From Clostridia bacterium (GTDB taxonomy: Bacteria > Bacillota > Clostridia > UMGS1883): a stretch of 64,000 nucleotides of DNA. Position numbers and translations under genes: made by a program. Positions 11,148-40,249 of this stretch are shown here, one piece after another. Location: positions 6,057-70,056 of the forward strand of contig JAFQLL010000017.1 of NCBI GenBank assembly GCA_017414645.1. Direction: 5' to 3'. Every line of letters starts with the position of its first letter. The first letter of the stretch is position 1. The notes below the pieces were generated by a model. It saw nothing but the letters and a program-made list of their open reading frames with translations, searched no databases and was not told where the DNA came from.

Positions 11148-11153
11148 AAATAC

Positions 11154-11230: not shown

Positions 11231-11267
11231 TTTTTTTATTCAGTGTCATTTCAAATGGCACTCATAT

Positions 11268-11345
<78 letters not shown>

Positions 11346-11417
11346 TTATTAAAAAAACAGGATCCGGTGATACCGGGGCTTCCGCGAACCGGTCTTGAGC
11401 GATTCGCTCTTTTATTT

Positions 11418-11493
11418 TGGACCGTAGCCAAGCGGTAAGGCACCGGACTTTGACTCCGGCATTTCGTGGGTTCAAATCCCGCCGGTCCAGCCA
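11418..11493 (+). tRNA. tRNA-Gln(UUG)
   Basis: Acceptor TGGACCG/CGGTCCA; anticodon loop CUUUGAC; encoded CCA. Confidence 0.88.
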
Positions 11494-11496
11494 CAT

Positions 11497-11572
11497 GGGA
11501 CACTAGCTCAGTCGGTAGAGCACTTGACTTTTAATCAAGTTGTCGGGGGTTCGATTCCCCCGTGTCTCACCA
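11497..11572 (+). tRNA. tRNA-Lys(UUU), integration target
   Basis: Anticodon arm CTTGA-CTTTTAA-TCAAG; T arm GGGGG-TTCGATT-CCCCC; encoded CCA. The 3' 46 nt are duplicated at 18742-18787. Confidence 0.92.
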
Positions 11573-12609: not shown

Positions 12610-12690
12610 GGTAAAACAAAATACAACAAGCCTCAACAAACTAAAACAAAGCAGTCTAAAGTATCAACTTTTGACTGCTTTTATTATCTT

Positions 12691-13722: not shown

Positions 13723-13794
13723 ATTAAAACCTCTTTCGTTAGTATAATAATATAATAACATCAACTTTGCAAAAATACAACGAAAAACAAATGT

Positions 13795-13838
13795 TTGACT
13801 TGATGCAAAAGTGTGGTATAATAACTATACCACACTTT
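13795..13838 (+). promoter_or_regulatory. Strong rightward promoter (TTGACT-16-TGgTATAAT) overlapped by a perfect 13-5-13 palindrome
   Basis: AAAGTGTGGTATA-ATAAC-TATACCACACTTT at 13808-13838 covers the -10 element. Divergent from the WYL gene promoter (TTGCAA-17-TATTAT on the minus strand). Confidence 0.65.
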
Positions 13839-14008
13839 CACTTTAATAATAAAACACCGAGCATTCTTGGGAATGTTCTGTTTTGCTATTCAAAAATATA
13901 CACATAAGCAAAGTTGTGTTTTGCAAAAAATGCGGCTTTAATATGTGCTTTGTTTGTGTGTATTATTGAGAGTGAATGTGTGGTAGCATAAATCTCCGCC
14001 GCGTTTTT

Positions 14009-14045
14009 ATGCGTGGTGACGATTTATGTTGCCACGCATTTTTTA
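14009..14045 (+). terminator. Terminator-like hairpin ~185 nt downstream of the 13795 promoter
   Basis: ATGCGTGG...CCACGCAT stem followed by TTTTTAATT. Confidence 0.5.
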
Positions 14046-14284
14046 ATTGCGTGAGAATTACGAAAGGAGATTTTGAGTTGAAAAAACGTAATGTCACCCA
14101 GTCCAAAAGTAGAAGCATGGGGCGGTATATTATGGGAGATAAAAAATCGAAAGTCATATTTTGATATATAGGAGGTCATTCCAATTTTGAAATGTGATTT
14201 TGATTTTGCCGTCTCCGACAAATCACACAATTAAAAAAGCACACTTATATTTCAAGGTGTGCAAACACAGAAAGGAAAATTATT

Positions 14285-15361
14285 ATGAAAAGAAATGTTT
14301 CTCTCTTATTGGCAGTAATACTCACATTGTTGAGCTTTTCGTCTGTTTCTGCTAAAGCAGATGGAAGCCTGTCTAATTTTCAAGCAGTACAAAGCTACAC
14401 AGAAGGTCAATTTACAGATGTTTCATCTTCTGCTTGGTATGCTCCTAACGTAAAATATACTTATGAAATTGGTTTGATGAATGGCAATAGTGATACAACA
14501 TTTAACCCTGACGGAAATATATTGCTTTCCGAAACTATTGCATTAGCAAGTCGTTTACATAGTATATATTATAATGGTGAGGCAAGTTTTGAAGCAAGTA
14601 CACCTTGGTATCAGTCTTATGTTGATTATGCAATAGATAATCGTATAATCGGTTCTGGCAAATATACATACTTTGATAAAGCAACAAGGGCAGATTTTGC
14701 TGAAATTATGGCAAAAGCTTTACCTTCAGAAGTATATAATAAAATCAATACTGTTGACGATGATGCTATTCCCGATGTTAAAACTGCAGCAAAATATTCC
14801 GATGCGGTATATACTCTTTACAGAGCAGGTATTGTAACAGGTAGCGATGCAGAAGGAACTTTTAATCCTACATCAAATATTAAACGCTCTGAAGTTGCTG
14901 CAATCGTATCCCGAATTGTTGATAAAACACAAAGAAAGTATATCACACTTAAATATGAAGTTTCCGAGACATATAAGTATTTTCCTGTTAAAACACTAAC
15001 TGCTGTAACTGGGGCTGAATGTAAGGATTCATATACGGGATATAGTATTCAGATAAACAATGGATACATTGAAGATAACAATACATTTAATTATGATGTT
15101 AAATCAGTATCAGATTATGATAGGTACTTTGTTCCTTATATAGAATACCTTGAATCAAATCCAAATGTTACAAGATATAGCAGCGACGGAATGGACCTTG
15201 GTGGTTTTACTAATGTTTCTTATACGTATAAATTAAATGATGGTAGCAATAAATACATAGATGTTTCATGGAATTATGGAGAATATACTAAAACCTATAG
15301 TATACGGGTATGGATGTATGGAATTAAGAACGGAAAAGTTGTTTGGATTCAGAATATGTAA
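14285..15361 (+). CDS. Secreted S-layer-homology (SLH) domain protein
   Basis: Signal peptide. SLH-like repeats (FTDVSSSAWYAPNVKY..., FNPDGNILLSE, FNPTSNIKRSEVAAIVSR). Confidence 0.75.
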   Translation: MKRNVSLLLAVILTLLSFSSVSAKADGSLSNFQAVQSYTEGQFTDVSSSAWYAPNVKYTYEIGLMNGNSDTTFNPDGNILLSETIALASRLHSIYYNGEASFEASTPWYQSYVDYAIDNRIIGSGKYTYFDKATRADFAEIMAKALPSEVYNKINTVDDDAIPDVKTAAKYSDAVYTLYRAGIVTGSDAEGTFNPTSNIKRSEVAAIVSRIVDKTQRKYITLKYEVSETYKYFPVKTLTAVTGAECKDSYTGYSIQINNGYIEDNNTFNYDVKSVSDYDRYFVPYIEYLESNPNVTRYSSDGMDLGGFTNVSYTYKLNDGSNKYIDVSWNYGEYTKTYSIRVWMYGIKNGKVVWIQNM

Positions 15362-15397
15362 ACAAAAAGAGTGGGATTTCCCACTCTTTTTGTTTAT

Positions 15398-15522
15398 GTT
15401 CGTAAAGGTACACCTTTAGAAACAGGCAAAAAGGGCGTGTTTTCCTTGTTCGTAAAATATTAAAAATTATTTGCGAATATGTTCGTAAAATTGTTGACAT
15501 TTGCGAACAGCGGAGGTATAAT
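15398..15522 (+). promoter_or_regulatory. res-like repeat cluster plus TTGACA-17-TATAAT promoter of the serine recombinase
   Basis: GTTCGTAAA at 15398, 15448 and 15481. Inverted TTTGCGAA(C) at 15470 and 15500. -35 at 15494-15499, -10 at 15517-15522. Confidence 0.6.
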
Positions 15523-15551
15523 ATAGCTATAATCAACAAGGGGGCAATACA

Positions 15552-16160
15552 ATGGAAACACGTACTTACTATTATGCGAGAGTATCAAGCAAGGAACAAA
15601 ACCTTGACAGACAGATTGAGGCTTTCAAAGCTCTTGGAGCTGATGAAAGAGATATTATAACAGACAAGGAAAGCGGCAAGGACTTGAACCGCACAGGCTA
15701 TACCGCATTAAAAAATGCAATGCTCCGAAAAGGCGATACGCTTGTTGTAAAATCTCTTGACCGTCTTTCAAGAAACAAAGCAGACATTAAAAACGAACTG
15801 CAATTCTTTAAAGATAACGGCATCCGTTTAAAAGTTATCGACTTGCCAACAACAATGATGGAATTGCCAGTAGGTCAAGAATGGGTGTTTGAAATGGTAA
15901 ACAACATCTTGATTGAGGTTTTGGGAACAATCGCAGAACAAGAGCGCGAGACAATCAAAAAAAGACAAGCTGAAGGTATCGAAGCGGCAAAGAAAAACGG
16001 CAAGCGTTTGGGGCGTCCCGCACTTGTTTTTCCGCAGAATTGGAAGCAAGTGTATGCTGACTGGCAAGAAGGTAAAATTACCGCCAAAACTGCAATGGAA
16101 TTGACCGATACCAAGAGAACAAGTTTTTATAAGTTAGTGCAAATGACTGAAGGCAAATAA
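15552..16160 (+). CDS. Small serine recombinase (resolvase/invertase family)
   Basis: YYARVSSKEQNLDRQ catalytic-Ser motif; C-terminal HTH; 202 aa. Confidence 0.9.
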   Translation: METRTYYYARVSSKEQNLDRQIEAFKALGADERDIITDKESGKDLNRTGYTALKNAMLRKGDTLVVKSLDRLSRNKADIKNELQFFKDNGIRLKVIDLPTTMMELPVGQEWVFEMVNNILIEVLGTIAEQERETIKKRQAEGIEAAKKNGKRLGRPALVFPQNWKQVYADWQEGKITAKTAMELTDTKRTSFYKLVQMTEGK

Positions 16161-16192
16161 AAAAGACGGGAGGCGTTGACCTCTCGTCTTTG
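16161..16192. terminator. Bidirectional terminator between convergent genes
   Basis: AAGACGGGAGG-CGTTGA-CCTCTCGTCTT. Confidence 0.65.
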
Positions 16193-16196
16193 AGTT

Positions 16197-16595
16197 TTAT
16201 ATTAAAGTGTTCAATACATCTTTTGCATTGACCTTGACCACATCAAATAGTCTCCAATCTTCTACTTTTGGAATCTATGTATTAAGAAGCGGCTTGTATT
16301 GTCTGATGTATTCTCCTTCTTTGTTTCCAATTTCATCATCAATAGCATAATACCCCTAACTGCTTGCATAATAAAGAACATCAAAGTTAATTGAATGCCC
16401 TTTCCTTTGCGCCTCGGACAGTATGCGGTATTTCAATTCGCTTTCGCATTTTATACCGACATAGTGTTGCGCCACGCGTTTTAGCATATTCTGACTTTTG
16501 CCGATGTAAACAATCTATTCATCGACCTTTATACAGTAAATGCCTGCGTGCTCGTATTTTGGTGCAAGACCTTGTCTTTTCAAGTAATTATACAT
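16197..16595 (-). pseudogene. GIY-YIG nuclease-like gene with three in-frame TAG codons (pseudogene or amber-recoded)
   Basis: Hand translation gives MYNYLKRQGLAPKYEHAGIYCIKVDE*IVYIGKSQNML...YYASS*GYYAIDDE...LLNT*IPKVEDW...LI, ending in TAA. TAG at 16515-17, 16356-58 and 16275-77. RBS GAGG. Confidence 0.7.
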
Positions 16596-16612
16596 ATTAA
16601 CCTCGTAGCTCA

Positions 16613-17176
16613 TTAGAATACAAACCCCTTTTCTTTTGGTTCTCTTTGCGGTCTTGGTATGACAATCTCTTTTACTTTTGGAACTTCTATGACTGCTTTC
16701 TGTTGGTTATTCTCTCCGTTATTTGTTTTATTATTTGTTATAATATTATCTATTTCTATACTACTGGGGTCAATTAAATTGTTGGCAGGCTCTTCTTCTT
16801 GAACGTTTCCCGTATTCTCAAAATCGCGAGCCGACAAATTATTTTTTAATTGAGCGCCACGCGCCTGAGGTACTTCGTAAAAATCAAAAGTATTGCTTCC
16901 AGTTTCGACCAAATAGCCTTTGTTAATTAGAATTTTTAACTGGTCGCGATAGGTGGAACGCGCCATCCCTATGGATAGGTTGACCGCTTCGGGCGAAAGC
17001 GCAAACGTATAGTTGTCTGCATTTGCCGCAAAATATAAGTAAAGAGAAAAGGCATATGGCTACAAATCTTTAATGGCATTTTGCCAATTCTCATTCTTGA
17101 TACCTAAAAAATCATTTGTAATTTTTTGTCTGTGAACCCGAACCATTCTTTGGTTCGGATAACTTATTCTTGCCAT
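16613..17176 (-). pseudogene. Winged-helix, replication-initiator-like protein gene with one in-frame TAG
   Basis: MARISYPNQRMV...NAIKDL*PYAFSLYLYFAANADNYTFALSPEAVNLSIGMARSTYRDQLKILINKGYLV... TAG at 17060-17062. The track ORF 16613..16966 is only the distal part. Ends in TAA. Confidence 0.65.
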
Positions 17177-17180
17177 AATT

Positions 17181-17366
17181 TTATCGTCCTTTCGTTGTAT
17201 CTTTTAATGGTTTGAAAATCTTATCAAGTGATTGTTCGATAATTTCTTCAAACTGTTTTTCTATGCCGATGGTATAGAATATTCTTTTGCGCTCCTTTTG
17301 GAGAATCTCGTGCGGTTGCAGATTGTCTTTCTTATATTCTGCATATCTCTAAATTGCGGATTTCAT
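17181..17366 (-). pseudogene. 61-codon small gene with one in-frame TAG at codon 6
   Basis: AGGAGG 8 nt upstream of ATG 17366. MKSAI*RYAEYKKDNLQPHEILQKERKRIFYTIGIEKQFEEIIEQSLDKIFKPLKDTTKGR. The TAA is 4 nt before the next ATG. Confidence 0.5.
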
Positions 17367-17486
17367 TATAAAATCCTCCTTTCATTTTTACTTTCTATAA
17401 TTATTATACAAAAATTTTTTATAAAAATCAAAGTGAGGCGAAGCGGTACTCGTTAAAAAAAGAGTTTGTTCTATGTGAACAAACTC

Positions 17487-17927
17487 TCATCCGTTAGCTG
17501 CTTCTGCTTTTGTTTCGTACTCGTCAATATTAGGTTCGGGTACAGGAAAAGCAGCAATATTCTTGGGTTCAAAATCGGGTAATTCTTTATACGTGGGGAA
17601 CTGCGCGTTGAACCAATCGCAAACATACTTGTAGGGGCAAGCCAAGGGCGCAGACTTTGCTTTTATAGTCTCGAAGCGGCTTAAGAGCTCGTTAGCGTTT
17701 GCAAATGTGTTAATGTACTTTTCCATATTTTCATAGGTTAAACGCTTGTTGTAGCGCGGTTTTTTCTGTTCTCTGCCGGACTTAACAATTACGCTAAAAT
17801 TGGGAAAATCACTTAATATGCTCTTGCGAATATTGTATTCTTCCGAGCCGTAAACGGAAGCCGCCGCGGCAAACTTAAAATTCATAATCAATGTGTTTGT
17901 TGTGAAATCAATCTTATATCCTGTCAT
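17487..17927 (-). CDS. Hypothetical protein, paralogue B of a tandem pair
   Basis: 146 aa. Shares the Y(E/D)NMEKYI ... PYKYV(C/L)DWFN blocks with 17943..18380. Confidence 0.7.
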   Translation of the reverse strand: MTGYKIDFTTNTLIMNFKFAAAASVYGSEEYNIRKSILSDFPNFSVIVKSGREQKKPRYNKRLTYENMEKYINTFANANELLSRFETIKAKSAPLACPYKYVCDWFNAQFPTYKELPDFEPKNIAAFPVPEPNIDEYETKAEAANG

Positions 17928-17942
17928 TGTAATATCCTCCTA

Positions 17943-18380
17943 TTATTTATTAACTGCATTATTGAACGGAACAACGTTTTCTTGTTCATTTGTCTTTTCT
18001 TCTTTGAAAATATCATGTGTTTCATAGCCTTTGAATGTTTCGTTGAACCAATCCAAAACATACTTATAGGGGTTCTTTTGGATTGCGGAAGCGGCTTTTA
18101 CCTTTTCAAACGTTACAAGATATGCCGCACTATCTTTGCCGCAAGCTGTCTTAATGTACTTTTCCATATTATCGTATGTGCGGTTCCTGTTTGTTTTCTT
18201 GTCGGGATTCTTCTTAATGCTCTTGGTTCTCATTTCAGCGTTGGGGTATCTTGTAATGAACTGTTCCCACATTTCGTATTCAGCTGAACCAAAGATTCTT
18301 GCATTTTTCATAAATGCCTTTGTTACCTGACCTACTACTGTTCCGTTTGTGTTTCTAATTACTGTAATCTGATTTTTCAT
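17943..18380 (-). CDS. Hypothetical protein, paralogue A of a tandem pair
   Basis: Start set at ATG 18380 (MKNQITVIRN) behind AAGGAGG. Shared blocks with 17487..17927. Confidence 0.7.
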   Translation of the reverse strand: MKNQITVIRNTNGTVVGQVTKAFMKNARIFGSAEYEMWEQFITRYPNAEMRTKSIKKNPDKKTNRNRTYDNMEKYIKTACGKDSAAYLVTFEKVKAASAIQKNPYKYVLDWFNETFKGYETHDIFKEEKTNEQENVVPFNNAVNK

Positions 18381-18741: not shown

Positions 18742-18788
18742 ACTTTTAATCAAGTTGTCGGGGGTTCGATTCCCCCGTGTCTCACCAA
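18742..18788 (+). repeat. attR core (47-bp direct repeat = 3' part of tRNA-Lys)
   Basis: Identical to 11527-11573. Confidence 0.9.
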
Positions 18789-18797
18789 CATAAAAGG

Positions 18798-19663
18798 CAC
18801 TTGCAGTAGCAAGTGCCTTTTATGTTGGCAAGATGTGGGATATATCCCACACACTTAATAAAGTGCAATACCGACTGAGCGTGCGAAGGAGGGAGTAACG
18901 GAGTCCGACCGCGCCCGGTGGGCGATGCAGGGAGCACGCAAAGGCTGTGCCGCAACACAATGAAACAAGCCACATGCTGTGCGGCGCAGTTGAATTGATG
19001 TTGCAAACGTAAACGACCGTTTGGGTTCCGCTCTCCAAAACGGAATGGGATAAAAATCACTTGCAGTAGCAAGTGCCTTTTATGTTGGTAAGATGTGGGA
19101 TACATCCCACACACTTAATATAGTGTAATACCGACTGAGCGTGCGAAGGAGGGAGAACTGCGTAGCGACCGCCTCCTGCGGAGGATGAAGGGAGCACGCA
19201 AAGGCTGTGCCGAGGTCGAAGTAGCCGAGCGAGATAGCGAGGATACGAGGGCACCTCAAACGTAAACGACCGTTTGGGTTCCGCTCTCCAAAACGGAATG
19301 GGATAAAAATCACTTGCAGTAGCAAGTGCCTTTTATGTTGGCAAGATGTGGGATATATCCCACACACTTAATAAAGTGCAATACCGACTGAGCGTTGCGA
19401 AGGAGGTAGTAACGGAGTCCGACCGCGCCCGGTGGGCGATGCAGGGAGGACGACGGGCTGTGCCGCAACACAATGAAACAAGCCGCATGCTGTGCGGCGC
19501 AGTTGAATTGATGTTGCAAACGTAAACGACCGTTTGGATTCCGCTCTCCAAAACGGAATGGGATAAAAATCACTTGCAGTAGCAAGTGCCTTTTATGTTG
19601 GCAAGATGTGGGATATATCCCACACACTTAATAAAGTGCAATACCGACTGAGCGTGCGAAGGA
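18798..19663 (+). repeat. Tandem array, 3.3 copies of a 253-260-bp structured unit
   Basis: Unit-initial hairpin CACTTGCAGTAGCAAGTG at 18798, 19058, 19311 and 19571. Conserved 5' and 3' blocks flank a ~100-nt variable block. Confidence 0.9.
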
Positions 19664-19687
19664 ACATTTACTCCTGTTTGAAAAAAA

Positions 19688-19708
19688 CACTTGATTAAAA
19701 GTCAAGTG
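19688..19708 (+). other. Inverted copy of the tRNA-Lys anticodon stem-loop
   Basis: CACTTGATTAAAAGTCAAGTG is the reverse complement of 11521-11540 (20/20 nt). Lies 20 nt upstream of the 19729 ATG. Confidence 0.8.
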
Positions 19709-19728
19709 GCTGTTGAGGTGAAAAACCT

Positions 19729-21518: not shown

Positions 21519-21683
21519 AGTTTTGAACCATGTTCAAAGTGAAGTTGTTTCTTACGAAACAGTGAAGTTTTACGTTTTACGTAAAGTGAAGTTAAGTTTG
21601 CACTATGCCGTAAGGCATAACTTCACTTGCAAAGCAAACTTCACTGCGAAAGCAACTTCACTTGCCTGAAAGGCAAACTTAAT
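21515..21683 (+). repeat. GTGAAGTT/AACTTCAC 'ladder' element, copy 2
   Basis: GTGAAGTT at 21515, 21539, 21562 and 21586. Central ATGCC-GTAA-GGCAT. AACTTCAC at 21619, 21637 and 21654, degenerate at 21676. Confidence 0.8.
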
Positions 21684-30454: not shown

Positions 30455-30534
30455 AAAAATCACCTCAATAAAGCGATTTTATCATACAAAATAGGGAAGT
30501 GCAAGGGTAATGTAAAAAAGCATTTTAAATGCTT

Positions 30535-30737
30535 CAACCCCCTCTTCCGTTTGCGGTACCCTGTATCAACTTCGCTAATCCGCTCGTTGATGACAGACCG
30601 CGGCACAGCTCTGCGCATTCGCTCAATCATCCACTGGATGCGCTCATGCTCGATTCCCCCAATCTTGGGGGACGAAAAGGTAAGCTTTTATTTCATAAGC
30701 AAATATGCGCACATTCTGCGCGCAATTTCCTATATGA
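30535..30737 (+). repeat. Structured intergenic repeat family, copy B
   Basis: Near-identical to copy A over ~148 nt, then alignable with compensatory hairpin changes. Confidence 0.8.
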
Positions 30738-30768
30738 TAAAAACAGCGTGGAGAATTACTCCACGCTG
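30737..30768 (-). terminator. Terminator of the RHS operon
   Basis: Minus strand: CAGCGTGGAG-TAAT-TCTCCACGCTG followed by TTTTTAT. Confidence 0.65.
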
Positions 30769-30875: not shown

Positions 30876-31871
30876 TCACCATACTTTTTCATGAACAGTG
30901 CCGTTTGTATTAATTCGATACAACTTGTCATCTATATTGTAAAAATAAACCCAATCATCTATAATGTTAATTCCGTTTCGAGCAACCTTTATATTAGAAA
31001 GTTTTTGTTCTAAAGTTCCGTCCGTTTTAATTTTGTATAGATTAGAATCTTTTTCTTTAACAAAATATATCCAATCATCTTGAATATTAAAATTACTGCA
31101 CTGGTCATAAGTTATTTGAGAATACTGTAGGGAATCAATATCTATTTTAGCAATACCATAACCTTTTAGATGGCCGGAAATAAAATACATATCATTGTCA
31201 ACAAACAAAACATTGTTTTTAGAAAGTTGCTTTAAATCCTCATCGAAATCAATACTTTTGATAACATCTCCATCTAATGACAAAAGTAAAATGTTATTAG
31301 ATTCTGTATAGATTATGTTATCAATAATATTAAATTCATCTACGGCAAAAGTTGTAAGTTGAGTAATTTCCGTTCCGTCATATTTTGCCTTGTACAAGCA
31401 ATTTGTAGGGAAACTTTCGCAATTTGTATAGTAAATCCAACCATCATATGCGATTAGTCTATGTGTGGTTATGCCTTTTATTTTAGACATCGTATTAGTT
31501 TTTAAATCTCGACAATAAAGCGAGGGGGGAGAAAAACCACCCCAACCTTCGTATCGAATAATGAACATTAAATCCCCAACCACATTAAGATTGATACCGC
31601 TTTTGATTCCTAAAGTTGCTTGTTTCTTACTGCTTTCATTAAAAGCATATGAGTGGAAAAATTCTTGACAATATATCCATTCACCTTGCTTTGACACAAA
31701 AGCATTGTTTGCAATATTTCCGTTTGTATTGCCTGCAACATTCTCTTGTGCCAAATCTATGCTGTTGATAATATGTTTATTTTTAATGCTAATGTAAAAA
31801 CAAACAACAATTAGAACAGCAATAAATAGACATATAATAAATAGAAATATTCGGCGATAATCTTTCTTCAT
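30876..31871 (-). CDS. Membrane-anchored beta-propeller repeat protein (DUF5050-like); candidate immunity/accessory protein
   Basis: N-terminal TM helix. Repeated D(D/G)W(I/V)Y(F/Y)...LY(K/R)I..(D/N)G blades. GGAGG RBS 20 nt after the RHS stop. Confidence 0.75.
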   Translation of the reverse strand: MKKDYRRIFLFIICLFIAVLIVVCFYISIKNKHIINSIDLAQENVAGNTNGNIANNAFVSKQGEWIYCQEFFHSYAFNESSKKQATLGIKSGINLNVVGDLMFIIRYEGWGGFSPPSLYCRDLKTNTMSKIKGITTHRLIAYDGWIYYTNCESFPTNCLYKAKYDGTEITQLTTFAVDEFNIIDNIIYTESNNILLLSLDGDVIKSIDFDEDLKQLSKNNVLFVDNDMYFISGHLKGYGIAKIDIDSLQYSQITYDQCSNFNIQDDWIYFVKEKDSNLYKIKTDGTLEQKLSNIKVARNGINIIDDWVYFYNIDDKLYRINTNGTVHEKVW

Positions 31872-31891
31872 TCATTTGCCTCCTGTTACAA

Positions 31892-34800
31892 TTAGTAGTT
31901 AGAATTGCCAAAGATTTTAACAAGACTTTCGTGCAGAGCTACGGGTATAATTTCTGTTATTGAGGGATATTCCCACATTTTTTGAACTTCTCCCCAAAAC
32001 CCTTCGTATTTTGAGAAATCTCCGTCGTATAGAATTTCCATTGATTTCGTTGCACATGAGCTACCAACTGCAAGATAGATTTCATCATCCCAGTCGAATT
32101 TGCCGTTGTTTTTTTCTACATCGTTTTGAGCATGTTCGATAGATTCTGTAAAGTCACCTTCAATATAGACACTTTTATCATAATTATTAAACGAATTTTC
32201 ATCATGTACACCAGAGGCAACCAGCCATTTATTAAGATCATCAATATTATCAAGAGGATATATTACGGTTCCATCGCTCATAGTATATGAATCTGGTACT
32301 TCTACTAAAATCACAGTTGCAGTCCAAATCGGCATTCCGCTTTGACTTGGACCAAAATAGTAATAACTCCATTTTCCAGTGCTCTCATCTTCTAACAAAA
32401 GAGATGTGTGCCCCAGCCCACCAACTGCAGTAGATGCAGTTATTACTCGTGCATCTAACCCACTCGGGTCAACAAACGCAATGGGGTTATTACTACAATA
32501 CACATACCAGTTCGTTCCGTCCTTGATGGGGTCAACGGAAATGAAGCGACCTATTGAGGGGTCATAATAACGTGCACGAAGGTAAATGTCGCCTGTTTCG
32601 TTGTCGAGATATTCACCTGCATAGCGGAACGGGTTTGTATCGGTTGACCTTTCTCCCTGCCATATTTCACCAAAGGGAGAATAGTAATAATTCTGCACAA
32701 TGGGATATTTAACACTGGCGGTGTTTAAGTCCATAAAGTCAAACTCACCATCGCAGTTCAAATCCATCTCGGGGAATGGTGCAGCAGAGCCGTAGAAGGG
32801 TGAAAGATACAAATCAACACTGTCGATTGCCATGGTGTGAACAACGTTGCCTCTGCCGTCATAGGCGTAAAATTCGTGATAGCCGTTGACGGGAACAACA
32901 GTTTCAACATAATCGTCGAGGGTTTCGTCATAATAAGAGTCAATAAATGCATTGTAGGTGTATGCATCGCCCTTTACAGTACGGGAAACACGGTTAACAC
33001 CGTAGAAATAGTCTGTTGACTTGTCAGGTGTTTCCTCGCGGACAATGTTGTCGCCAGCCCAGATGAAGGAAGTGGTTACACCGTTTGCTGTTTTGCTTGT
33101 TCTTAAAGAAGAAGCATTGTAGGTGTAGGTATATGTTCCGCTTTGGGTTGTAACGGATGCAACCTCGTTACGTGGTGTGTAGGTATACTGATAAGTAACC
33201 GAGTCGTTAAGCTTGGCAATGGTGTTGCCGTTTGCATCGTAGCGGTACTCGGTAACGTTGCCTGCTGTGTTTTCGCTTGTTAAGCGGTGATTTGTGTAGG
33301 TATAAATAGTTGCTGTGGAAACGTTTTCGGCATCTGTTACGGTCTGGCTTGTGCGGTCACCACGATTGTTGTAGTTGTAGCCCCATGTGCGGACACGCGC
33401 GCCGTTGTTGGTTGTGTTTGCAATTGTAAGGCGGTTGGCAGCATCGTAGCCATAGATGGTGTCGTAGGTGGTGCTGCCGCGTGTGTCGGACACGGTTTTC
33501 ACATTGCCGTCGGGGTAGTAGGAATACACAAAGGATGAAAACTCGCGTATATCATTGTAGCCTTCTTCGTATGTGGGGTCATTGACAAGGCGACGGCTAT
33601 GGGTAGTGGATTTCATTAAATTACCGGGAGTGTATTCATACTCGGTAATAAGTCCGCTCTTTTCCTCGGTTGTGGGGAAGCCGTTTTCGTTATACTCATA
33701 CACTACAGTGTCAACACCATCGGAGGCAGAGGTCATATTGCCAAGGATGTTATACTCGTATGTATTGGTTTGCAGTGTGGTAGTGCCCTTTTTAAGGAGC
33801 ATGGTTTCAACCTGCCCTGCAGTATTATATGTACGGAGTATGGAATTATCCCCTGTAACCTCTGATATGTTACGACCAAAGTTGTCGTATGCATAGGTTG
33901 TGGCAACATTGTTACGGCTTGCCAATGTAATGTAATTGAAGGAATTGTATTCATATTCAATCACGTCGCCTGCTACAACAGATTCTAAAAGATTGCTTCT
34001 TGAATCGTAGGTGTTATACGTAACCTGGCCCTTGGGGTCGGTTGTTGTAAGTGTGTTGCCTGCAAGGTCGTAGGTGTAGGAGGTTGTGCCGTTAAAGGTT
34101 GTTTCGGATATAAGGTTGCCGAAGTTGTCGTATGCAAAATCAGTAACATTATAGGTTGAATTAAGGGGCGTAAGCTCAGAAATGTCAGTTGTTGAGCTCT
34201 CTAAGCCTGACACCGTTTTTACGAGCTGATTGCCGTCGTATTGGTTAACTGTGTAGGTTGAACCGTTAAAGGACGATACAAGGCGGTTGCGGTTGTCATA
34301 AGAATAAGTGTATGCAACATCGCCTGCTGCCGCTGAAACAACTGTTTTGACAGTATTGCCGTTAGCGTTGTAATAATAGCTTGAAAGGCCTGTTACATCA
34401 GTATCAACAGGGGCTGACTTGGTGAGCATACGACCGATGGAGTCATAAGTATAGGTTGTGGTGTTACCCATGTAGTCTGTTGTTGAAAGCTGTCTGCCTA
34501 ATACGTCGTAAGTGTTGGTAATGTAATTTTCATCGGCATTATATGCCTTAATTACCTGGTTATTATAATTATACTCGTATTTCTGCGAATAGTCAACATC
34601 ATAATCTGCATAGGCAGCTTCGTCCTTGTATTCAAGCACGTTGCCAAGGGCATCGTAGGTATAGGTAGCAATATACTCATTATCTCCGTCGGTTGTGATT
34701 TGCTTGCACAATCTTCCTTGGCGGTCGAGGTATTGCTTCACCGTGGGAGGAGTGATGCCGTCCTTTGGTGTTGATTCTACGGTGACAGAAGTGAATTGAT

Positions 34801-37465
34801 AATAAGAGCCACTATTGTAGTTGTCGTGTGCCCATGAAGGACTTGATGTGTTAAGGGTTGTGAGTCTGTCGACTGTATTGTAAGTGTAGGTTTGCTTTGA
34901 CAATTCTGTTCCGTTTTCGTCGAAAGCTGCGACCTCGGAAACATTGTCAAGGGCACCATAGGTGTAATGGGTTTCAATCCATTTTGTGGGTAATTTGCGA
35001 GTGTTATAACCGGTGTATTGTACCATTACAGAAGGACGGCAAAGTGCATCGTATTCGTATTCAGCTACAACAATCCAACGAGGATTTGTTGTGGTGGCTA
35101 CGTTTTTGTATGTTGCAAGCACGTTGCCGAATGCATCGTAAAGTGTTTTCTTCATTATGCCGTTTTCATCTGTCACAATGGTTGTACGATTCAATGTGTC
35201 ATAGGCATAAGTGACGGTTGTATCGTCGGGATTAATTACTTTTATAAGGCGACCTAAAAGGTCGTATTCGTAAGCTGTTTCGTTGCCGTTTCCGTCTGTT
35301 GATGAAATGAGCCTGCCGTAACGGTCGATTGTAGTTGATGTAGTAATATTGGCGACGGAATTGTTTTCAGCATCTTTTATGTTGTTTGCAATGGCAGTTG
35401 TTGTTATACTGCCGTTTGCAGAGTAAGTATAGGTATAGGTTGTAACCTGATTAATGCCGTCGGGGTCAACAGTACTGCTTGAAAGTGTTCCGTCGGGATT
35501 GTAGGTGTATTCAACAGTATACTTGTCGGTATAATTGTCGCCACCATCTGTTGATTCGGACACGGTCATTGAATCAATTGTTCTGCCGGTATAAAAATCA
35601 TCGCCTTCTTCTGAAAGAGTATATGTAGTTTTTACAAAAACATCTTCGGTTTGGTTGTAAATTTCGCTTTCCACAAAACTGCTGTCATCAAAATACGATA
35701 TGGTTTTTTCGTAGTCGTCGTGTGCAATACGGCTGGGGCGGTTAAGAGAATACCTTGTGTATATATTTCTTCCTCCGTCAATGCGTGAACCGTTATCGAA
35801 AAACTGTTCTGTGCGAATACGCTTTCGGTTTAAATAATGATATTCTTCACTATACTCTTCGTCTTCGAAGGCTATTGTCATATCAGATACGCGATATTCT
35901 CCGTTGTAGGTATATGTTTGTCCGTCGGCGGTTCTTGTTGCAATTGAATAGTTTCCGGGGGAGTACGTGTAGGTGAAATGATTGAATGTATCGTTGTTGT
36001 CAAGGTCATACCGCTCTGAAACGGAATATGTTTCCTTCTTTGTGGAGTTTTTTATGTTGCGAGACCTCGAATAATTGTAGGTAGATACTAATCCGTTGGG
36101 ATGAGTAACTTGTTTAACAATTTCGCACTCAATAGGAACGTGGTGAGTGTAATCTCCCATGGTGTACCATGCCTGATGATATTTTGAATATTTAAAGCTT
36201 TTTGTATATTCGGTCGTTGCGTTTTCATATCTGATGATACTGCTTGTGCAATCGTCGTCAAAGGCAAATACGTTTGTTGTGTCTTCAACACTGTTTGTAC
36301 GGGTATTTTTAAATTTAGCGTGTAAAGTGGGAGTTGCGGTTGAGTTTTCTGCCACGTATATTGACACATCGTTGTTGCTGTATGTGAATGTTATTTTACG
36401 TCCCAAGGTGTCGGTAATGTCTAAAATGCGACCCTTTAAACCACTCATTTCTTCAAAGGTGTATTTTATCATATTGCCGAAACGGTCCTCTGCTGCGCAT
36501 AAAAAGCCTTCCTGTGTAAAAAACATGGTGCGACCTGAGCTGTCAGTGATCGAGCAACGGTATGTTATGCCTCTTTGCTCGTCAACAATATCTTCGCCTG
36601 TATAATAGCCTGTGTATTCACCGGGGCAGTCTGCAAAAGTTACAGACAAATTAGATATTGCATCATTTGACTTCTTTTTACGGTACTTTATTGTAAGCTC
36701 ACAATATTCTCCGTCCAAGTCTACAAAAGCACATGTTTGCTTATAATAATTGTAGGTGCTGTCATAATCATAGCGCGTGGGATAGATTACATCCGTTATA
36801 ACAGGAAGATTCCACTTCCATATGTCGGAGAAGTTAAGCCTTTCCGTGTTGGAATCCATTTGTGTTAATATGGTATTTTCTTCCCAGCCAATAACAACCG
36901 GAGCCATGTCTGTATCTCTGGTCAAAAGAATATTGTTTTCAATTGTGTTCAAGTTGGAAAGCCAATGAAATTCTATATCGAAATCATCGGTGATTGCTGC
37001 CGTGGGTATAGATTTTACATAAAATGAATTTAGCCCGACGGACGATAATTCTTCCTCGTAATATGGTGCAATTAATATGTATTTTGTAGTGTCATTGTCG
37101 TCATAGGAGTAGTAATAAGCATATTTAAAAAACTCGCCAAGATATCTTGTGCTGCCTGTGTATAAGCCAATGCCTATTTCGTTACTGTTATATGTAGCAG
37201 AAAGATTAACGTCAAATCCATTTTTGCCGGGCAAATGAAGAATGTTTTCCGAAAGCAAAAGCGAACCATCGGTAGGAGCAATGTATTCTTCAGGGAAATT
37301 TTCTTTGCTGTAAGGGCTGTTGTAGCCTACAGGGTCGCTGTTCTGTATGAGTTCAGCCACCTGCGCGGAGGATAATGCCGCTGATGTTGACTCTGCCGAA
37401 GCCGGAAGTGAAATTAAAAAAATAAGTAATACAATGAGGGCAATCAAATAAAGGCATTTTTTCAT
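31892..37465 (-). CDS. RHS/YD-repeat polymorphic toxin, 1857 aa
   Basis: Signal peptide; many YD repeats (YxYDxxGNxx). RHS core end YDPSIGRFISVDP...NPIAFVDPSGL, followed by a 187-aa tail. Confidence 0.93.
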   Translation of the reverse strand: MKKCLYLIALIVLLIFLISLPASAESTSAALSSAQVAELIQNSDPVGYNSPYSKENFPEEYIAPTDGSLLLSENILHLPGKNGFDVNLSATYNSNEIGIGLYTGSTRYLGEFFKYAYYYSYDDNDTTKYILIAPYYEEELSSVGLNSFYVKSIPTAAITDDFDIEFHWLSNLNTIENNILLTRDTDMAPVVIGWEENTILTQMDSNTERLNFSDIWKWNLPVITDVIYPTRYDYDSTYNYYKQTCAFVDLDGEYCELTIKYRKKKSNDAISNLSVTFADCPGEYTGYYTGEDIVDEQRGITYRCSITDSSGRTMFFTQEGFLCAAEDRFGNMIKYTFEEMSGLKGRILDITDTLGRKITFTYSNNDVSIYVAENSTATPTLHAKFKNTRTNSVEDTTNVFAFDDDCTSSIIRYENATTEYTKSFKYSKYHQAWYTMGDYTHHVPIECEIVKQVTHPNGLVSTYNYSRSRNIKNSTKKETYSVSERYDLDNNDTFNHFTYTYSPGNYSIATRTADGQTYTYNGEYRVSDMTIAFEDEEYSEEYHYLNRKRIRTEQFFDNGSRIDGGRNIYTRYSLNRPSRIAHDDYEKTISYFDDSSFVESEIYNQTEDVFVKTTYTLSEEGDDFYTGRTIDSMTVSESTDGGDNYTDKYTVEYTYNPDGTLSSSTVDPDGINQVTTYTYTYSANGSITTTAIANNIKDAENNSVANITTSTTIDRYGRLISSTDGNGNETAYEYDLLGRLIKVINPDDTTVTYAYDTLNRTTIVTDENGIMKKTLYDAFGNVLATYKNVATTTNPRWIVVAEYEYDALCRPSVMVQYTGYNTRKLPTKWIETHYTYGALDNVSEVAAFDENGTELSKQTYTYNTVDRLTTLNTSSPSWAHDNYNSGSYYQFTSVTVESTPKDGITPPTVKQYLDRQGRLCKQITTDGDNEYIATYTYDALGNVLEYKDEAAYADYDVDYSQKYEYNYNNQVIKAYNADENYITNTYDVLGRQLSTTDYMGNTTTYTYDSIGRMLTKSAPVDTDVTGLSSYYYNANGNTVKTVVSAAAGDVAYTYSYDNRNRLVSSFNGSTYTVNQYDGNQLVKTVSGLESSTTDISELTPLNSTYNVTDFAYDNFGNLISETTFNGTTSYTYDLAGNTLTTTDPKGQVTYNTYDSRSNLLESVVAGDVIEYEYNSFNYITLASRNNVATTYAYDNFGRNISEVTGDNSILRTYNTAGQVETMLLKKGTTTLQTNTYEYNILGNMTSASDGVDTVVYEYNENGFPTTEEKSGLITEYEYTPGNLMKSTTHSRRLVNDPTYEEGYNDIREFSSFVYSYYPDGNVKTVSDTRGSTTYDTIYGYDAANRLTIANTTNNGARVRTWGYNYNNRGDRTSQTVTDAENVSTATIYTYTNHRLTSENTAGNVTEYRYDANGNTIAKLNDSVTYQYTYTPRNEVASVTTQSGTYTYTYNASSLRTSKTANGVTTSFIWAGDNIVREETPDKSTDYFYGVNRVSRTVKGDAYTYNAFIDSYYDETLDDYVETVVPVNGYHEFYAYDGRGNVVHTMAIDSVDLYLSPFYGSAAPFPEMDLNCDGEFDFMDLNTASVKYPIVQNYYYSPFGEIWQGERSTDTNPFRYAGEYLDNETGDIYLRARYYDPSIGRFISVDPIKDGTNWYVYCSNNPIAFVDPSGLDARVITASTAVGGLGHTSLLLEDESTGKWSYYYFGPSQSGMPIWTATVILVEVPDSYTMSDGTVIYPLDNIDDLNKWLVASGVHDENSFNNYDKSVYIEGDFTESIEHAQNDVEKNNGKFDWDDEIYLAVGSSCATKSMEILYDGDFSKYEGFWGEVQKMWEYPSITEIIPVALHESLVKIFGNSNY

Positions 37466-38385
37466 TTTTTAAGCACCTCTTTTTCTGTAAGTGCATCGAT
37501 GGTTTTTGCTGTACAATCAGGTTGTTTAAGTGCATTAAAAATATCTAATTCACTATAACCGCTGTCAAGAAGTTCTGTTATTTTTTCTTCTGTAATGCCA
37601 TCCTTTTCAGCTTCTTTTACCATTGCGTTAAAGTTGGGGCTCTTTTTTCCCTTCCAATAGCCTTTTTCTTTAAGGATGGAATTTACTTTTTTTGCATTTT
37701 GTTCAAAATAAGTATTTGAATTATCTGTGAGAAGTATGGTATTAACTGCGGTAGCTTCTTTTACATTTGATTCAGCAGTCACTTCTTTTGAAATGGAAAT
37801 TTCTATTTTTTCAAGGTTTATGCCCGAAAGGCGTGCATCAAGAATTTCCTGTATTGTCATAACAGCTTTACGGCTCAAAAGATTTGCCTGCATTATGTCG
37901 TCAACTGACAAGCCTTTTTCTAAATAGGCAACCACATCGTCCTCGGTGAGAACACCACATTTGTTATTTGTGATTTTGTTAAATGCATTTTCAAATACAA
38001 CATCGCGGTTTGTTATTGGTTCTCCATTATAAACCATGTCGTAAATTTGCTTTACGATGGATATGGGCTCATTGGTTGTGAGATAAAACTGATATATGTC
38101 CATTGTTGTCTGTGGATCACAGCCTGATAATATCATTTGTTCGATAAAGGAAAAGGAATCCTCCGTGGGACAATATCGACCTAAAAAGAGGGCAGTTTTA
38201 TGGAAAGAGTGAAACGCCTCTTCGGTATCATAGCCCATGTAATTTGCCAAACGGTCAAAGGACGGGGCAAATTCATCTGCAGGTTTTACAATAGGCTCTA
38301 AAGTGAGTGAGCCGCTTGCCATTGCGACAGTTGCAATAGTAAGCAACGTTACCATAGCAATAACCACCATAAGTTTATTTTTCAT
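37462..38385 (-). CDS. Secreted helical-repeat protein, unknown function
   Basis: Start set at ATG 38385 behind AGGAGG; signal peptide. The stop overlaps the RHS start (ATGA). Confidence 0.65.
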   Translation of the reverse strand: MKNKLMVVIAMVTLLTIATVAMASGSLTLEPIVKPADEFAPSFDRLANYMGYDTEEAFHSFHKTALFLGRYCPTEDSFSFIEQMILSGCDPQTTMDIYQFYLTTNEPISIVKQIYDMVYNGEPITNRDVVFENAFNKITNNKCGVLTEDDVVAYLEKGLSVDDIMQANLLSRKAVMTIQEILDARLSGINLEKIEISISKEVTAESNVKEATAVNTILLTDNSNTYFEQNAKKVNSILKEKGYWKGKKSPNFNAMVKEAEKDGITEEKITELLDSGYSELDIFNALKQPDCTAKTIDALTEKEVLKK

Positions 38386-38486
38386 GTTTTTCCTCCTGTG
38401 TAACAATTTTTGTGTGCGAATATAGCTTTCGGTGTAGCATTTATTAAAATGGTTTTTCCCGAAAGCTATATTCCGCCATTGTGGAA

Positions 38487-38921
38487 TTACTTGTATTCCA
38501 CAATGTTGCTTGTGTCGTAAAAGGCTTCAACTTGATTTCCATCGGCATCGTAAGCGATGTATACGTTCATCAAGCGGTAGTCGTAACCCTTTTCAACCTG
38601 GTAAGTTTCGTCGAATGTTACATTGGTTGAGTCTGTGCCGTTCCAGGACTGTACGGTTCTCCACATGGAGCCCTTTTGTTGCAGTTGCATTACAAGGCGC
38701 ACGGTGTAGCCTGCTCTGACGCTTACAGAACCATAACAGCTTGCTATGCCTGATGAACTGATGTCGAACGAATAACTTGTTCTCGTAATTGCAACGTTAT
38801 AAGGCGTAGCTTCTGATGACTGGTAATCAAATTGTTCAGTTGCCATTGCAGAGATACATGAAGAACATGAAATCATACATAATGTAGCTATAAGTGCAAT
38901 TACCCTTTTAATTTTTAACAT
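38487..38921 (-). CDS. Small secreted beta-rich protein, unknown function
   Basis: Start set at ATG 38921 behind AAGGAGG; signal peptide ending SAMA. Confidence 0.6.
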   Translation of the reverse strand: MLKIKRVIALIATLCMISCSSCISAMATEQFDYQSSEATPYNVAITRTSYSFDISSSGIASCYGSVSVRAGYTVRLVMQLQQKGSMWRTVQSWNGTDSTNVTFDETYQVEKGYDYRLMNVYIAYDADGNQVEAFYDTSNIVEYK

Positions 38922-38989
38922 AAAAACACCTCCTTTCAATCGTGTCTGTATATATAACGATTGAAAGGAGGTGAAGTGGACAAGATTTT

Positions 38990-39673
38990 TCAATTTTTTT
39001 TCAAATTTTTTGAAATTTTTTCAATTTCTTCCTTTGTAAGGTTGCCGCAAACGTGATAAGAATATTCGTTGTCGTTCCATATTATCTGGTTGAGGTCATC
39101 CTTAAATATGCCTACAGCGTCGTAGCCCTGAATAGTGAGCTGTTCAATCGAGGCATTTTCAGTGTCGGTATTAAACTGCAAATCTAAATCACTTATCGTT
39201 ATTTGTAAGAACAAATCTTCCTTAAAAAAATTAAGAAAAAATTCTTTACTTGAGACAACCTTCTTTTGAAGCTCAAAGCCTTGGGGAAGGTAGGATAGGG
39301 TTACATCTTCATCGGTGTAGCTTCCATGGGCAGAGTCTGTAAAAAGCACATCACTGTTGGGGGCATTTTCGTTGTAAATAAGCTTTATAAATTTTGTGCG
39401 CCAGGCTTTTACGCTGCATATTGAAACGCTTGCCAGCATAAGTGCAACAAGGCACACACATGCCGCGCGCTTGGCATAGGTTATGAAATTGCTTTTTAAA
39501 CGGGCTTTGTTTGCTTCTTTAAAAAGCTGTTGCATTTTTTCTTCATGCTCTTTGGAAAAGCTTGCTTCGGACGCACCTGATTGGCAATCGCAGTCTTTTT
39601 CGGCAATGGCGGTAAGTGCTTCGTCAATAATTAAATCAAGGGCATTTTCAAAAGCGTTATTCTTATCCATCAC
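38990..39673 (-). CDS. Anti-sigma factor-like membrane protein (DUF4367-type extracytoplasmic domain)
   Basis: Cytoplasmic N-terminus, one TM helix, extracellular domain. 4-nt overlap with the ECF sigma gene. Confidence 0.7.
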   Translation of the reverse strand: MMDKNNAFENALDLIIDEALTAIAEKDCDCQSGASEASFSKEHEEKMQQLFKEANKARLKSNFITYAKRAACVCLVALMLASVSICSVKAWRTKFIKLIYNENAPNSDVLFTDSAHGSYTDEDVTLSYLPQGFELQKKVVSSKEFFLNFFKEDLFLQITISDLDLQFNTDTENASIEQLTIQGYDAVGIFKDDLNQIIWNDNEYSYHVCGNLTKEEIEKISKNLKKN

Positions 39674-40203
39674 TGTACATCCTCCTTTGCAAGCTGTTTT
39701 TTTATTTCGATTTTTGCACGTTGCAAGCGTTTGGTCACAGCTTCTGCGGATATGCCGAAAAAGCTTGCAATGTCGGCTCTGCTCATGTCATACACCCGGC
39801 TTAAAATAAGAGTGTCGCGGTATATGGGGTTCATGTTGTTTACTATATCCATTATCCTGCGGACACTTTCGCTGTCTATGGTTATGTCCTCGGGGGTGGA
39901 GTCTGCTACAAACTCAACCTCTGACATGGTTAAAACTTCGCGTTTTCTTTTGTTGTAAATATCTATTGCAATGTTGCGGCAAACAATAACAAGAAAATTG
40001 CGAATGTGAGAGCTGTTTTCTGTTTTTATCTTGTCAAGGTTTTTTATTATGCGCACAAAAGCCTCGCTCACAGCATCCTCAGCGAGCGATTGGTCGTTCA
40101 ATATTGCATAAGCTTCGTCGTACATGAAATTGCGGTACGTGTAGTACAGCTTTTCTACCTTTGTTTGTTTTTTCAAGGGCATCTTCTCCTTATTAACCGG
40201 CAA
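39670..40203 (-). CDS. ECF-type sigma-70 family sigma factor
   Basis: Region 2 (AEDAVSEAFVRII...FLVIVCRNIAIDIY) and region 4 (ADIASFFGISAEAVTKRLQRAK). Confidence 0.88.
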   Translation of the reverse strand: MPVNKEKMPLKKQTKVEKLYYTYRNFMYDEAYAILNDQSLAEDAVSEAFVRIIKNLDKIKTENSSHIRNFLVIVCRNIAIDIYNKRKREVLTMSEVEFVADSTPEDITIDSESVRRIMDIVNNMNPIYRDTLILSRVYDMSRADIASFFGISAEAVTKRLQRAKIEIKKQLAKEDVQ

Positions 40204-40220
40204 AGTGTAAATTCAGTAAA

Positions 40221-40249
40221 ATTTTATCATATACACAAATGGTTGTCAA
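40221..40249 (-). promoter_or_regulatory. SigA-type promoter of the ECF/RHS operon (TTGACA-17-TAAAAT)
   Basis: -35 at 40249-40244, -10 at 40226-40221 on the minus strand. Confidence 0.55.

Follow-up and report, generated by a model that had tools for sequence, protein, structure and literature searches.

How Gram-positive bacteria regulate and deliver the RHS toxins that they export through Sec is poorly understood. Dedicated sigma factors are familiar from other clostridial toxin loci, those of C. difficile TcdR/TcdC, BotR, TetR, and UviA, and fall into group 5 (the TcdR family). Extracytoplasmic function (ECF) sigma factors commonly, but not universally, activate their own genes from an upstream promoter. 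Among Gram-positive RHS toxins, the WapA-CT toxins of Streptococcus suis have a SecF-like protein and SrtB encoded upstream as lineage-specific helpers (PMC12704120). Here, we analyze a 64,000-nt stretch (the window) of a contig from a metagenome-assembled genome (MAG) of an uncultured gut 'Clostridia bacterium', in which a gene for an RHS toxin lies downstream of genes for an ECF sigma factor and a putative anti-sigma factor. Related contigs carry the label Oscillospiraceae. In the GenBank annotation, the sigma and RHS genes have generic family names only, and the gene for a 144-aa protein between them (p144) is hypothetical.

The initial annotation of the window described a single six-gene operon driven by a sigma-A-type promoter, in which the RHS toxin is co-transcribed with the ECF/anti-sigma pair and with two secreted accessory proteins, p144 and the 307-aa p307, and considered such an arrangement undescribed for Gram-positive RHS toxins. 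In accordance with the latter, our literature search turned up no paper that connects RHS toxins to ECF/anti-sigma modules in Firmicutes. The single operon is not supported, as the DNA separating the anti-sigma gene from p144 contains a hairpin resembling a terminator and a second promoter candidate, of the ECF type. Instead, the block consists of two modules arranged head to tail. Module A consists of sigma, DUF4367, and p144, and module B consists of p307, RHS with its variable tip, and the immunity candidate. The two secreted proteins therefore do not belong to one system, since p144 goes with the sigma/anti-sigma pair and p307 goes with RHS. With slightly better than even confidence, we propose that the two modules are joined and that an ECF switch, whose promoter is embedded in the hairpin, raises the expression of RHS and immunity genes. 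The features of the locus are as follows.

40249–40221, minus strand: sigma-A-type promoter TTGACA-17-TAAAAT with a TG extension, 11 of 12 matches, the best of the region
40203–39670, minus strand: ECF (group 4) sigma factor (Sigma70_r2 and Sigma70_r4_2, TIGR02937)
39673–38990, minus strand: DUF4367 putative anti-sigma factor (DUF4367, E 3.3e-16)
38982–38954, minus strand: candidate ECF promoter TGTCCAC-N16-CGTTAT, a conserved motif after the anti-sigma stop
38973–38922, minus strand: predicted insulating hairpin (RNAfold and covariation)
38921–38487, minus strand: p144, 144-aa secreted Ig/FN3-like protein (signal-like N-terminus, AlphaFold2 model)
38500–38413, minus strand: two p144–p307 stem-loops, neither followed by a T-run
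38385–37462, minus strand: p307, 307-aa secreted all-alpha protein (signal-like N-terminus, AlphaFold2 model)
37465–31892, minus strand: RHS/YD polymorphic toxin, 1857 aa, with a Sec signal (RHS_repeat, Rhs_assc_core)
31871–30876, minus strand: DUF5050 beta-propeller, 331 aa, membrane-anchored, in the immunity-gene position (DUF5050, E 2.5e-30)
30768–30744, minus strand: intrinsic terminator, a 10-bp stem with seven GC pairs and a T-run

All six minus-strand open reading frames (ORFs) are present where the initial annotation placed them. The upstream promoter and the downstream terminator are likewise confirmed as the best of their kind in the region, and the overlaps and short gaps are as described. 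Read from the sequence, the sigma and anti-sigma genes overlap (GTGA or TGATG), 68 nt separate the anti-sigma gene from p144, 101 nt separate p144 from p307, p307 and RHS share an ATGA overlap, and the 20 nt between RHS and the DUF5050 gene contain an AGGAGG ribosome-binding site.

A candidate ECF promoter embedded in a hairpin

The comparisons below draw on seven close and about ten distant trios of sigma, DUF4367, and p144 genes and on 18 RHS loci, all from MAGs of a narrow group of uncultured Clostridia. Directly past the anti-sigma stop codon, these trios carry the general motif TGTCC(A/C)C-N16/17-(C/G)GTTAT. The window copy consists of TGTCCAC at 38982–38976, a 16-nt spacer, and CGTTAT at 38959–38954, and is the sole match within the 64 kb. 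No other non-coding DNA of the locus is as conserved as the 68 nt that hold it, between the anti-sigma gene and p144. The motif is found at the same position in all seven close loci, and distant trios, in which the anti-sigma protein is 33–43% identical, have TGTCCCC-N17-GTTAT at that position. Between close and distant loci, the spacer changes in sequence but the motif blocks stay fixed.

The 467 kb of fetched DNA contain 23 matches to the motif, all on the sigma strand, compared with 1.0 expected from shuffles. Additional copies that lack the hairpin lie ahead of further downstream genes in L029 (1313 and 5130), L030 (1252), and L031 (3936), a pattern expected of a regulon promoter, and hairpin-free copies also occur in L027 and L028. 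These observations suggest that TGTCCAC-N16-CGTTAT is the cognate ECF promoter. The search for an ECF-type promoter inside the block, which had been proposed along with the operon, thus yields a candidate at 38982–38954, upstream of p144, p307, and RHS.

Some matches lie within ORFs (L023 9648–9676, L024 904–932 and 1588–1616, L031 2353–2381, and L034 1778–1806). In these distant relatives, the copies are located within the sigma ORF itself or a fragment of it, overlap the region 2 codons for C-P-R-x-x-N-F-L-V-I, and could be either a coding coincidence or an internal promoter directed toward the anti-sigma gene. The window's sigma gene has no such copy.

The candidate promoter overlaps a predicted hairpin. 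The 5′ arm (38973–38958) comprises the promoter spacer and the start of the −10 box, and the loop spans 38957–38943. The 3′ arm (38942–38927) holds the Shine–Dalgarno region of p144 (CGATTGAAAGGAGGTG, GGAGG) and is followed by TTTTT (38926–38922) and by the ATG at 38921. The stem is 16–17 bp long and folds in RNAfold at −27.3 kcal/mol (z −3.9). In the seven close loci, 86.6% of cells are paired versus 45–56% when the partners are slid, and three stem pairs are compensatory, with both sides changed, while several become G-U, although these covariation counts come from few sequences. Fifteen of 19 elements fold at z < −2, including those of distant loci with wholly different stems. In particular, the stem of L023 (CATGTTTT/AAAACATG) is unlike that of the window, yet in it, too, the ribosome-binding site is paired with the spacer.

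The G-U pairs, several of them conserved, favor an RNA hairpin on the sense strand. A DNA operator palindrome was also considered and was rejected, because such pairs form only in sense-strand RNA. By sequence and fold, the element combines a stem-loop, a direct U-tract, and a Shine–Dalgarno sequence within the stem, as would be expected of a terminator or of an element that sequesters a ribosome-binding site. With the p144 ribosome-binding site as its 3′ arm and a U-tract behind it, the conserved hairpin is predicted to act as a terminator or as a mask in front of p144, so that sigma-A read-through would terminate or be untranslatable.

Near-identical second copies of the promoter and hairpin are present in L022 (8822–9594) and L021 (19350–19897), at 92–99 bits. 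Each follows a truncated DUF4367 gene beside IS200/IS605 transposases. The L022 copy precedes a gene for a 95-aa stand-alone LytTR-domain protein, and the L021 copy precedes a degraded ORF.

The sigma factor and its putative anti-sigma factor

The sigma factor is composed of regions 2 and 4 solely (Sigma70_r2, E 1.2e-10; Sigma70_r4_2, E 1.2e-11). It scores 78.5 bits against TIGR02937 (cutoff 42.9), and every equivalog or subfamily model stays under its cutoff. The gene is where the initial annotation placed it, but the start is not, as the ATG at 40182 is likelier than the TTG at 40203. This ATG is preceded by AAGGAG and probably begins a sigma factor of 170 aa; gene callers give 170 or 168 aa.

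Promoters resembling TTGACA-17-TATAAT are also located upstream of the sigma genes of L006, L018, L019, and L020, and an ECF-type motif is absent upstream of all five sigma genes examined. Since the upstream promoter is of the sigma-A type and the conserved ECF motif lies past the anti-sigma gene instead, nothing points to sigma autoregulation.

In the DUF4367 protein, a conserved FSxEHExKM motif lies within about 65 cytoplasmic residues, a hydrophobic segment lies at about residues 70–88, and the DUF4367 domain (residues 124–224) is predicted to be extracytoplasmic. A DUF4367 gene partners the sigma gene in every related locus. Gene position and topology together suggest that the DUF4367 protein is the anti-sigma factor. 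A PDB sequence search with this protein gave no usable relative. DUF4367 is unmentioned in the main text of the ECF classification paper, which we consulted in an attempt to assign the ECF group, and scarcely mentioned anywhere in the literature searched.

p144 belongs to the ECF module

p144 has a signal-like N-terminus, and its AlphaFold2 model (predicted local distance difference test, pLDDT, 81.8) shows an eight-strand Ig/FN3-like beta-sandwich. A fold search of the PDB returned generic Ig/FN3-like matches only; a match to the sensor domain of the anti-sigma factor RsgI4 was not taken as meaningful, given that generic background. Against Pfam and NCBIfam, p144 has no match. The family comprises nine close clusters, or 47 by profile search, all unnamed. 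The profile searches proposed for the two accessory proteins in the initial annotation found no family above threshold for either p144 or p307.

p144 follows sigma and DUF4367 in every locus with readable context, and does so directly except in L025. As p144 accompanies the pair even where RHS is absent (L020, L023, L024, L029, L031, and L042), it belongs to the ECF module. The distant trios of L023, L024, L029, and L031 have other signal-peptide proteins downstream. In L020, the trio is followed by genes for a 415-aa secreted protein and a lipoprotein, and in L042 and L043 the trio stands alone, with nothing related downstream.

Two distant sigma/DUF4367 pairs, in L032 (6761–10963) and L033 (10846–17121), have no p144. 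Each has a large RHS gene 3–6 kb from the pair, on the opposite, convergent strand.

p307 and the RHS toxin form a second module

p307 likewise has a signal-like N-terminus, and its AlphaFold2 model (pLDDT 79.7) shows an all-alpha domain of 17 helices. A fold search of the PDB found no match with E < 1, and no Pfam family scores above threshold; weak matches to UBA and DUF433 were judged to be noise. Four cysteines are invariant or nearly so across the family, which forms 25 clusters among 5.8 billion proteins. Exact look-ups, a GTDB genome scan, and jackhmmer searches of every fetched locus yielded 17 distinct loci with p307 besides the window, the most divergent at about 28% identity. In each of these 18, p307 is directly upstream of RHS, usually overlapping the RHS start. 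Because it accompanies RHS even without sigma, p307 belongs to the RHS cassette.

Co-evolution between p307 and the RHS N-terminus was also considered. The correlation (rho 0.65) does not define a specific interface, since the RHS middle region correlates with p307 as well (rho 0.49). The N-terminal and middle regions of RHS are themselves correlated (rho 0.77), indicating that the correlation of p307 with RHS reflects shared descent.

The RHS protein matches RHS_repeat (PF05593) in seven stretches with E 1.4e-38, TIGR01643 with 81 bits, YD_repeat_2x, and, at residues 1595–1670, Rhs_assc_core (TIGR03696) with 89.1 bits. The shell ends at DPSGL (aa 1666–1670), where cleavage is predicted, and aa 1671–1857 (nt 32455–31895) make up the C-terminal toxin. 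A Pfam scan of the N-terminus found no LysM or cell-wall-binding domain. Judged by these sequence features, the gene encodes a genuine Sec-exported Gram-positive RHS/YD polymorphic toxin.

The toxin tips differ between otherwise related loci. The tip family of the window has 44 representatives, and His16 and Cys134 are invariant in a 21-member alignment. The tip scores 22.7 bits against the TseH-like family PF25218, below the gathering score of 27. Eight of the 21 members match the TseH-like model weakly (best E 8e-5), and two match PPPDE below threshold. Searches of the PDB with the single sequence and with the 21-member profile gave nothing usable. It is plausible that the tip is an envelope-acting papain-fold hydrolase, distantly TseH-like.

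An orphan RHS fragment in L018 (17541–18762) matches the 3′ 1.2 kb of the shell (nt 33675–32454) at 93.4% identity, whereas the main RHS gene of L018 is unrelated at the DNA level, evidence that orphan cassettes recombine. Orphan tips, immunity genes, and IS200/IS605 transposases occur in several loci, as is usual where RHS genes turn over.

The DUF5050 protein has propeller matches in the PDB. In the initial annotation, this propeller was a fixed member of the system. Instead, it is a variable gene in the immunity position, which is occupied in other loci by RDD, DUF5104, a weakly DUF5050-like protein (L019), or unnamed proteins. Its position suggests that the DUF5050 protein is the immunity protein. 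DUF5050 was not found beside this toxin family elsewhere, as homologous tips in L013 and L007 precede other proteins.

The trio recurs upstream of RHS in relatives

The order of trio followed by RHS is present in five further lineages (L006, L018, L019, L021, and L022), six with the window, and p307-RHS follows six of the seven close-clade trios. These loci span several chromosomal sites and two RHS types that are unrelated at the DNA level. The same order and strand are found beside ilvC, behind AP_endonuc/GDSL (L019), and adjacent to ack-pta (L006). The neighborhood survey thus bears out the recurrence implied by a six-gene unit, but only in part, as most relatives' p307-RHS loci are without the trio. 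Among the latter, L007 and L040 are located at exactly the ilvBNC site of the window.

Comparison of the window with L018 indicates how such loci change. The ilv flank is 90.8% identical, and the trio with the intergenic DNA, up to about codon 25 in the p307 signal peptide, is 78.7% identical, whereas p307-RHS beyond the signal peptide has no DNA homology. As flank and trio are shared and p307-RHS DNA is not, the RHS cargo has been swapped behind a kept trio. In L006, the spacer between p144 and p307 is 34 nt and contains neither a promoter nor a second hairpin. In L007 (GCA_965342825.1), the trio is absent and a TGTCCAC-N16-CGTTAT remnant remains at 9852–9880, about 120 nt upstream of p307, with the locus's own sigma-A-like promoter downstream of the remnant. 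Judged from these loci, trio and toxin are joined repeatedly among relatives, but the link is optional and tentative.

Proposed mechanism

In our model, sigma and its membrane anti-sigma factor would be made constitutively from the consensus sigma-A promoter, with sigma held inactive. The sigma-A transcript would reach the 16–17-bp hairpin and UUUUU before the p144 start, where read-through would either terminate or have the p144 ribosome-binding site hidden by the 3′ arm. The ECF promoter would be contained in the same DNA, its spacer being the 5′ arm and its −10 box lying atop that arm. Sigma, once freed, would start a transcript in the loop. Since this RNA would be without the 5′ arm, it would be neither terminated nor masked, and the ribosome-binding site would be exposed. 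An envelope signal that inactivates the anti-sigma factor would in this way turn p144 on.

Between p144 and p307, one stem-loop (38500–38482) lies across the p144 stop and the other (38478–38413) has a 15-bp stem. Being without a U-tract, both would attenuate transcription rather than stop it, and ECF activation would lift RHS and immunity expression over a weak basal sigma-A level. In module B, p307 would be translationally coupled to the Sec-exported RHS shell with its His/Cys tip, and the membrane immunity candidate would follow. The read-through into RHS and these roles of p144 and p307 are what the arrangement of the locus suggests. The envelope-gated deployment of the toxin put forward in the initial annotation thus remains plausible as a regulatory link, in view of the internal ECF-type promoter candidate and the recurring order, whereas the sigma-A-driven operon through which it was to act is not supported.

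Several observations weigh against this model. Domain scans of the DUF4367 protein recognised no anti-sigma domain, ZAS and RskA types included. The candidate −35 element is without the AAC typical of many ECF promoters, and five of the 23 motif matches are inside sigma-coding sequence (L023, L024 twice, L031, and L034), so the motif pattern alone is no proof of promoter function. The hairpin loop of 13–15 nt exceeds those of textbook terminators, and a terminator scan did not flag the hairpin. Outgroup cargo genes tend to have individual ECF motifs of their own, whereas p307-RHS here has none. A strong hairpin, of unrelated sequence from locus to locus, occupies the p144–p307 position in five of six loci (the window, L018, L019, L021, and L022) and could mean attenuation. 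The loop of the p144–p307 stem-loop in the window contains a weak sigma-A-like promoter, TTAATA-17-TATATT (38447–38419), whose −10 box GCTATATT is common to the trio-less L007 and L008. Given this promoter and the stem-loops, RHS could be transcribed independently and ECF transcripts could end after p144. In addition, of the 17 p307-RHS loci in relatives, 11 lack sigma, anti-sigma, and p144 alike and carry sigma-A-like promoters of their own. Together with the related sigma/anti-sigma pairs that lie beside unrelated genes, these loci go part of the way toward refuting a dedicated pair on the initial annotation's own terms.

It is possible, though not what we expect, that the modules are independent neighbors, two mobile units that landed in one variable spot downstream of ilvC, the ECF module controlling p144 only and the RHS cassette being transcribed from the sigma-A-type promoter in the spacer; the finding would then shrink to an ordinary RHS island beside an ordinary ECF pair. 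The stem-loops, the spacer promoter with its shared −10 box, and the trio-less majority of p307-RHS loci are all consistent with independence, as are the trios found elsewhere alone or with other cargo and the contents of the ilvC-downstream site, which vary among genomes. Against independence, the same order and strand recur at several sites (ilvC, AP_endonuc/GDSL, and ack-pta), and the order recurs with two unrelated RHS types. Moreover, the 34-nt spacer of L006 leaves no room for a promoter or terminator, the p144–p307 stem-loops have no U-tracts, and the motif remnant of L007 is directly ahead of p307. A single six-gene operon transcribed from the promoter at 40249, with sigma directed to other sites or to an internal promoter that escaped notice, would account for the one strand, the short gaps, the one strong upstream promoter, and the one clear downstream terminator. 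We consider it improbable, because a conserved, covarying hairpin with a U-tract covers the p144 ribosome-binding site between the second and third genes and because the modules separate freely in relatives. Least probable by our estimate, and very unlikely, is that the element is a mere terminator of the sigma/anti-sigma pair, that TGTCCAC...CGTTAT is no promoter, and that p144 and the genes downstream are driven otherwise. The hairpin with its T-run is as expected of such a terminator, and the matches in sigma-coding sequence show that the pattern can arise otherwise, but a terminator would not explain why both motif blocks stay fixed while the intervening stem changes completely, why hairpin-free copies precede other genes in L027–L031, or why all matches are on the sigma strand, 23 against 1.

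The joined, ECF-switched arrangement invites a further, more speculative extension, to which we give only tentative credence: the trio would be an envelope- or competitor-sensing switch that this clade has repeatedly captured to gate Sec-exported RHS toxins. In that case, RHS and immunity proteins would be made only upon the anti-sigma signal, for example wall damage or a rival, the promoter inside a terminator would provide a very tight OFF state, and p307 would be a new extracellular partner in RHS delivery or assembly.

A candidate signal-gated RHS switch in gut Clostridia would link interbacterial antagonism to envelope sensing. The promoter within a hairpin would explain how a constitutive sigma/anti-sigma pair can lie 68 nt from a tightly silent target, and the design could find use in synthetic circuits as an insulated part. 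The locus also brings out two unannotated families, p307 as an invariant RHS partner and p144 as the invariant first gene past the ECF pair.

Composition and other features of the window

The GC content is 0.398 in the block, 0.428 in the window, and 0.458 in ilvBNC. The AT-richness noted by eye in the initial annotation is therefore real, but it is modest and uneven, being focused in the DUF5050 gene (0.301, the minimum of the block) and the toxin tip (0.374). A second low-GC stretch (12000–18000; 0.35–0.38 versus about 0.43–0.45), just past a tRNA cluster, looks like another acquired island.

Two copies of a 216-nt direct repeat share 90% identity, one at 10779–10994, just upstream of the cluster of five tRNAs (11074–11569), and the other at 30524–30739, between the terminator of the RHS unit and an AP_endonuc_2 gene; Rfam gave no match to the repeat, permissive thresholds included. 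At 18790–19725, in a stretch with no long ORFs, a 253–260-nt unit is repeated in tandem about four times beside a long palindromic hairpin (18773–18840), and Rfam gave only chance miRNA-like matches for this region. The Rfam scan of the whole window found only tRNAs and chance matches. A 63-nt repeat (3184–3246 and 21583–21645; 83% identical) has internal inverted symmetry, AAAGTGAAGTT...AACTTCACT, and may be a small element, either mobile or regulatory.

Comparison with known systems

The RHS module resembles WapA of Bacillus subtilis and S. suis in its signal peptide, its YD/RHS shell, its core ending at DPxGL, and its variable C-terminal toxin. As in WapA systems, an immunity gene position lies downstream, orphan toxin and immunity modules lie nearby, and lineage-specific accessory genes lie upstream. 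The accessory protein differs from those of S. suis, p307 being a secreted all-alpha protein without a Pfam or PDB relative rather than a SecF-like protein or a sortase, and an ECF module upstream of RHS is not reported in the papers found.

An RHS cocoon that encloses a C-terminal toxin is shared with the Rhs effectors of type VI secretion systems (T6SS; EagR/VgrG) and with the TcB/TcC toxins of ABC systems. T6SS Rhs effectors also have a small, translationally coupled upstream partner, and the tip of the window distantly resembles the T6SS effector TseH. However, no T6SS, PAAR, VgrG, or TcA genes are present here, and export is predicted to proceed through a Sec signal. Unlike Eag chaperones, p307 carries its own signal peptide, which suggests that it acts outside the cytoplasm.

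In coupling a two-domain ECF sigma factor to a putative single-pass membrane anti-sigma factor, module A is similar to rpoE-rseA-rseB of E. coli and to sigW-rsiW and sigV-rsiV of Bacillus. As in these modules, there is a predicted extracytoplasmic sensor domain, and a small exported third protein is encoded next, as RseB is. Unlike these modules, the locus shows no sign of autoregulation, its cognate motif is located downstream of the anti-sigma gene, and no ZAS- or RskA-type domain is detected in the anti-sigma candidate. In contrast to RseB, p144 is set apart from the first two genes by a hairpin and seems to be an output of the module, not one of its constitutive parts.

Similar to the TcdR-type loci, this is a clostridial toxin locus with its own sigma factor and a candidate negative regulator. 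The sigma factor here matches the ECF superfamily model, unlike the group 5 sigma factors of TcdR-type loci. The toxins of TcdR-type loci are large clostridial toxins, neurotoxins, or bacteriocins, not RHS proteins, and the architecture and promoter motifs are unrelated. What is new in the present locus is a conserved promoter motif within a hairpin and an invariant, previously undescribed RHS partner, p307, coupled in one clade to a candidate ECF switch.

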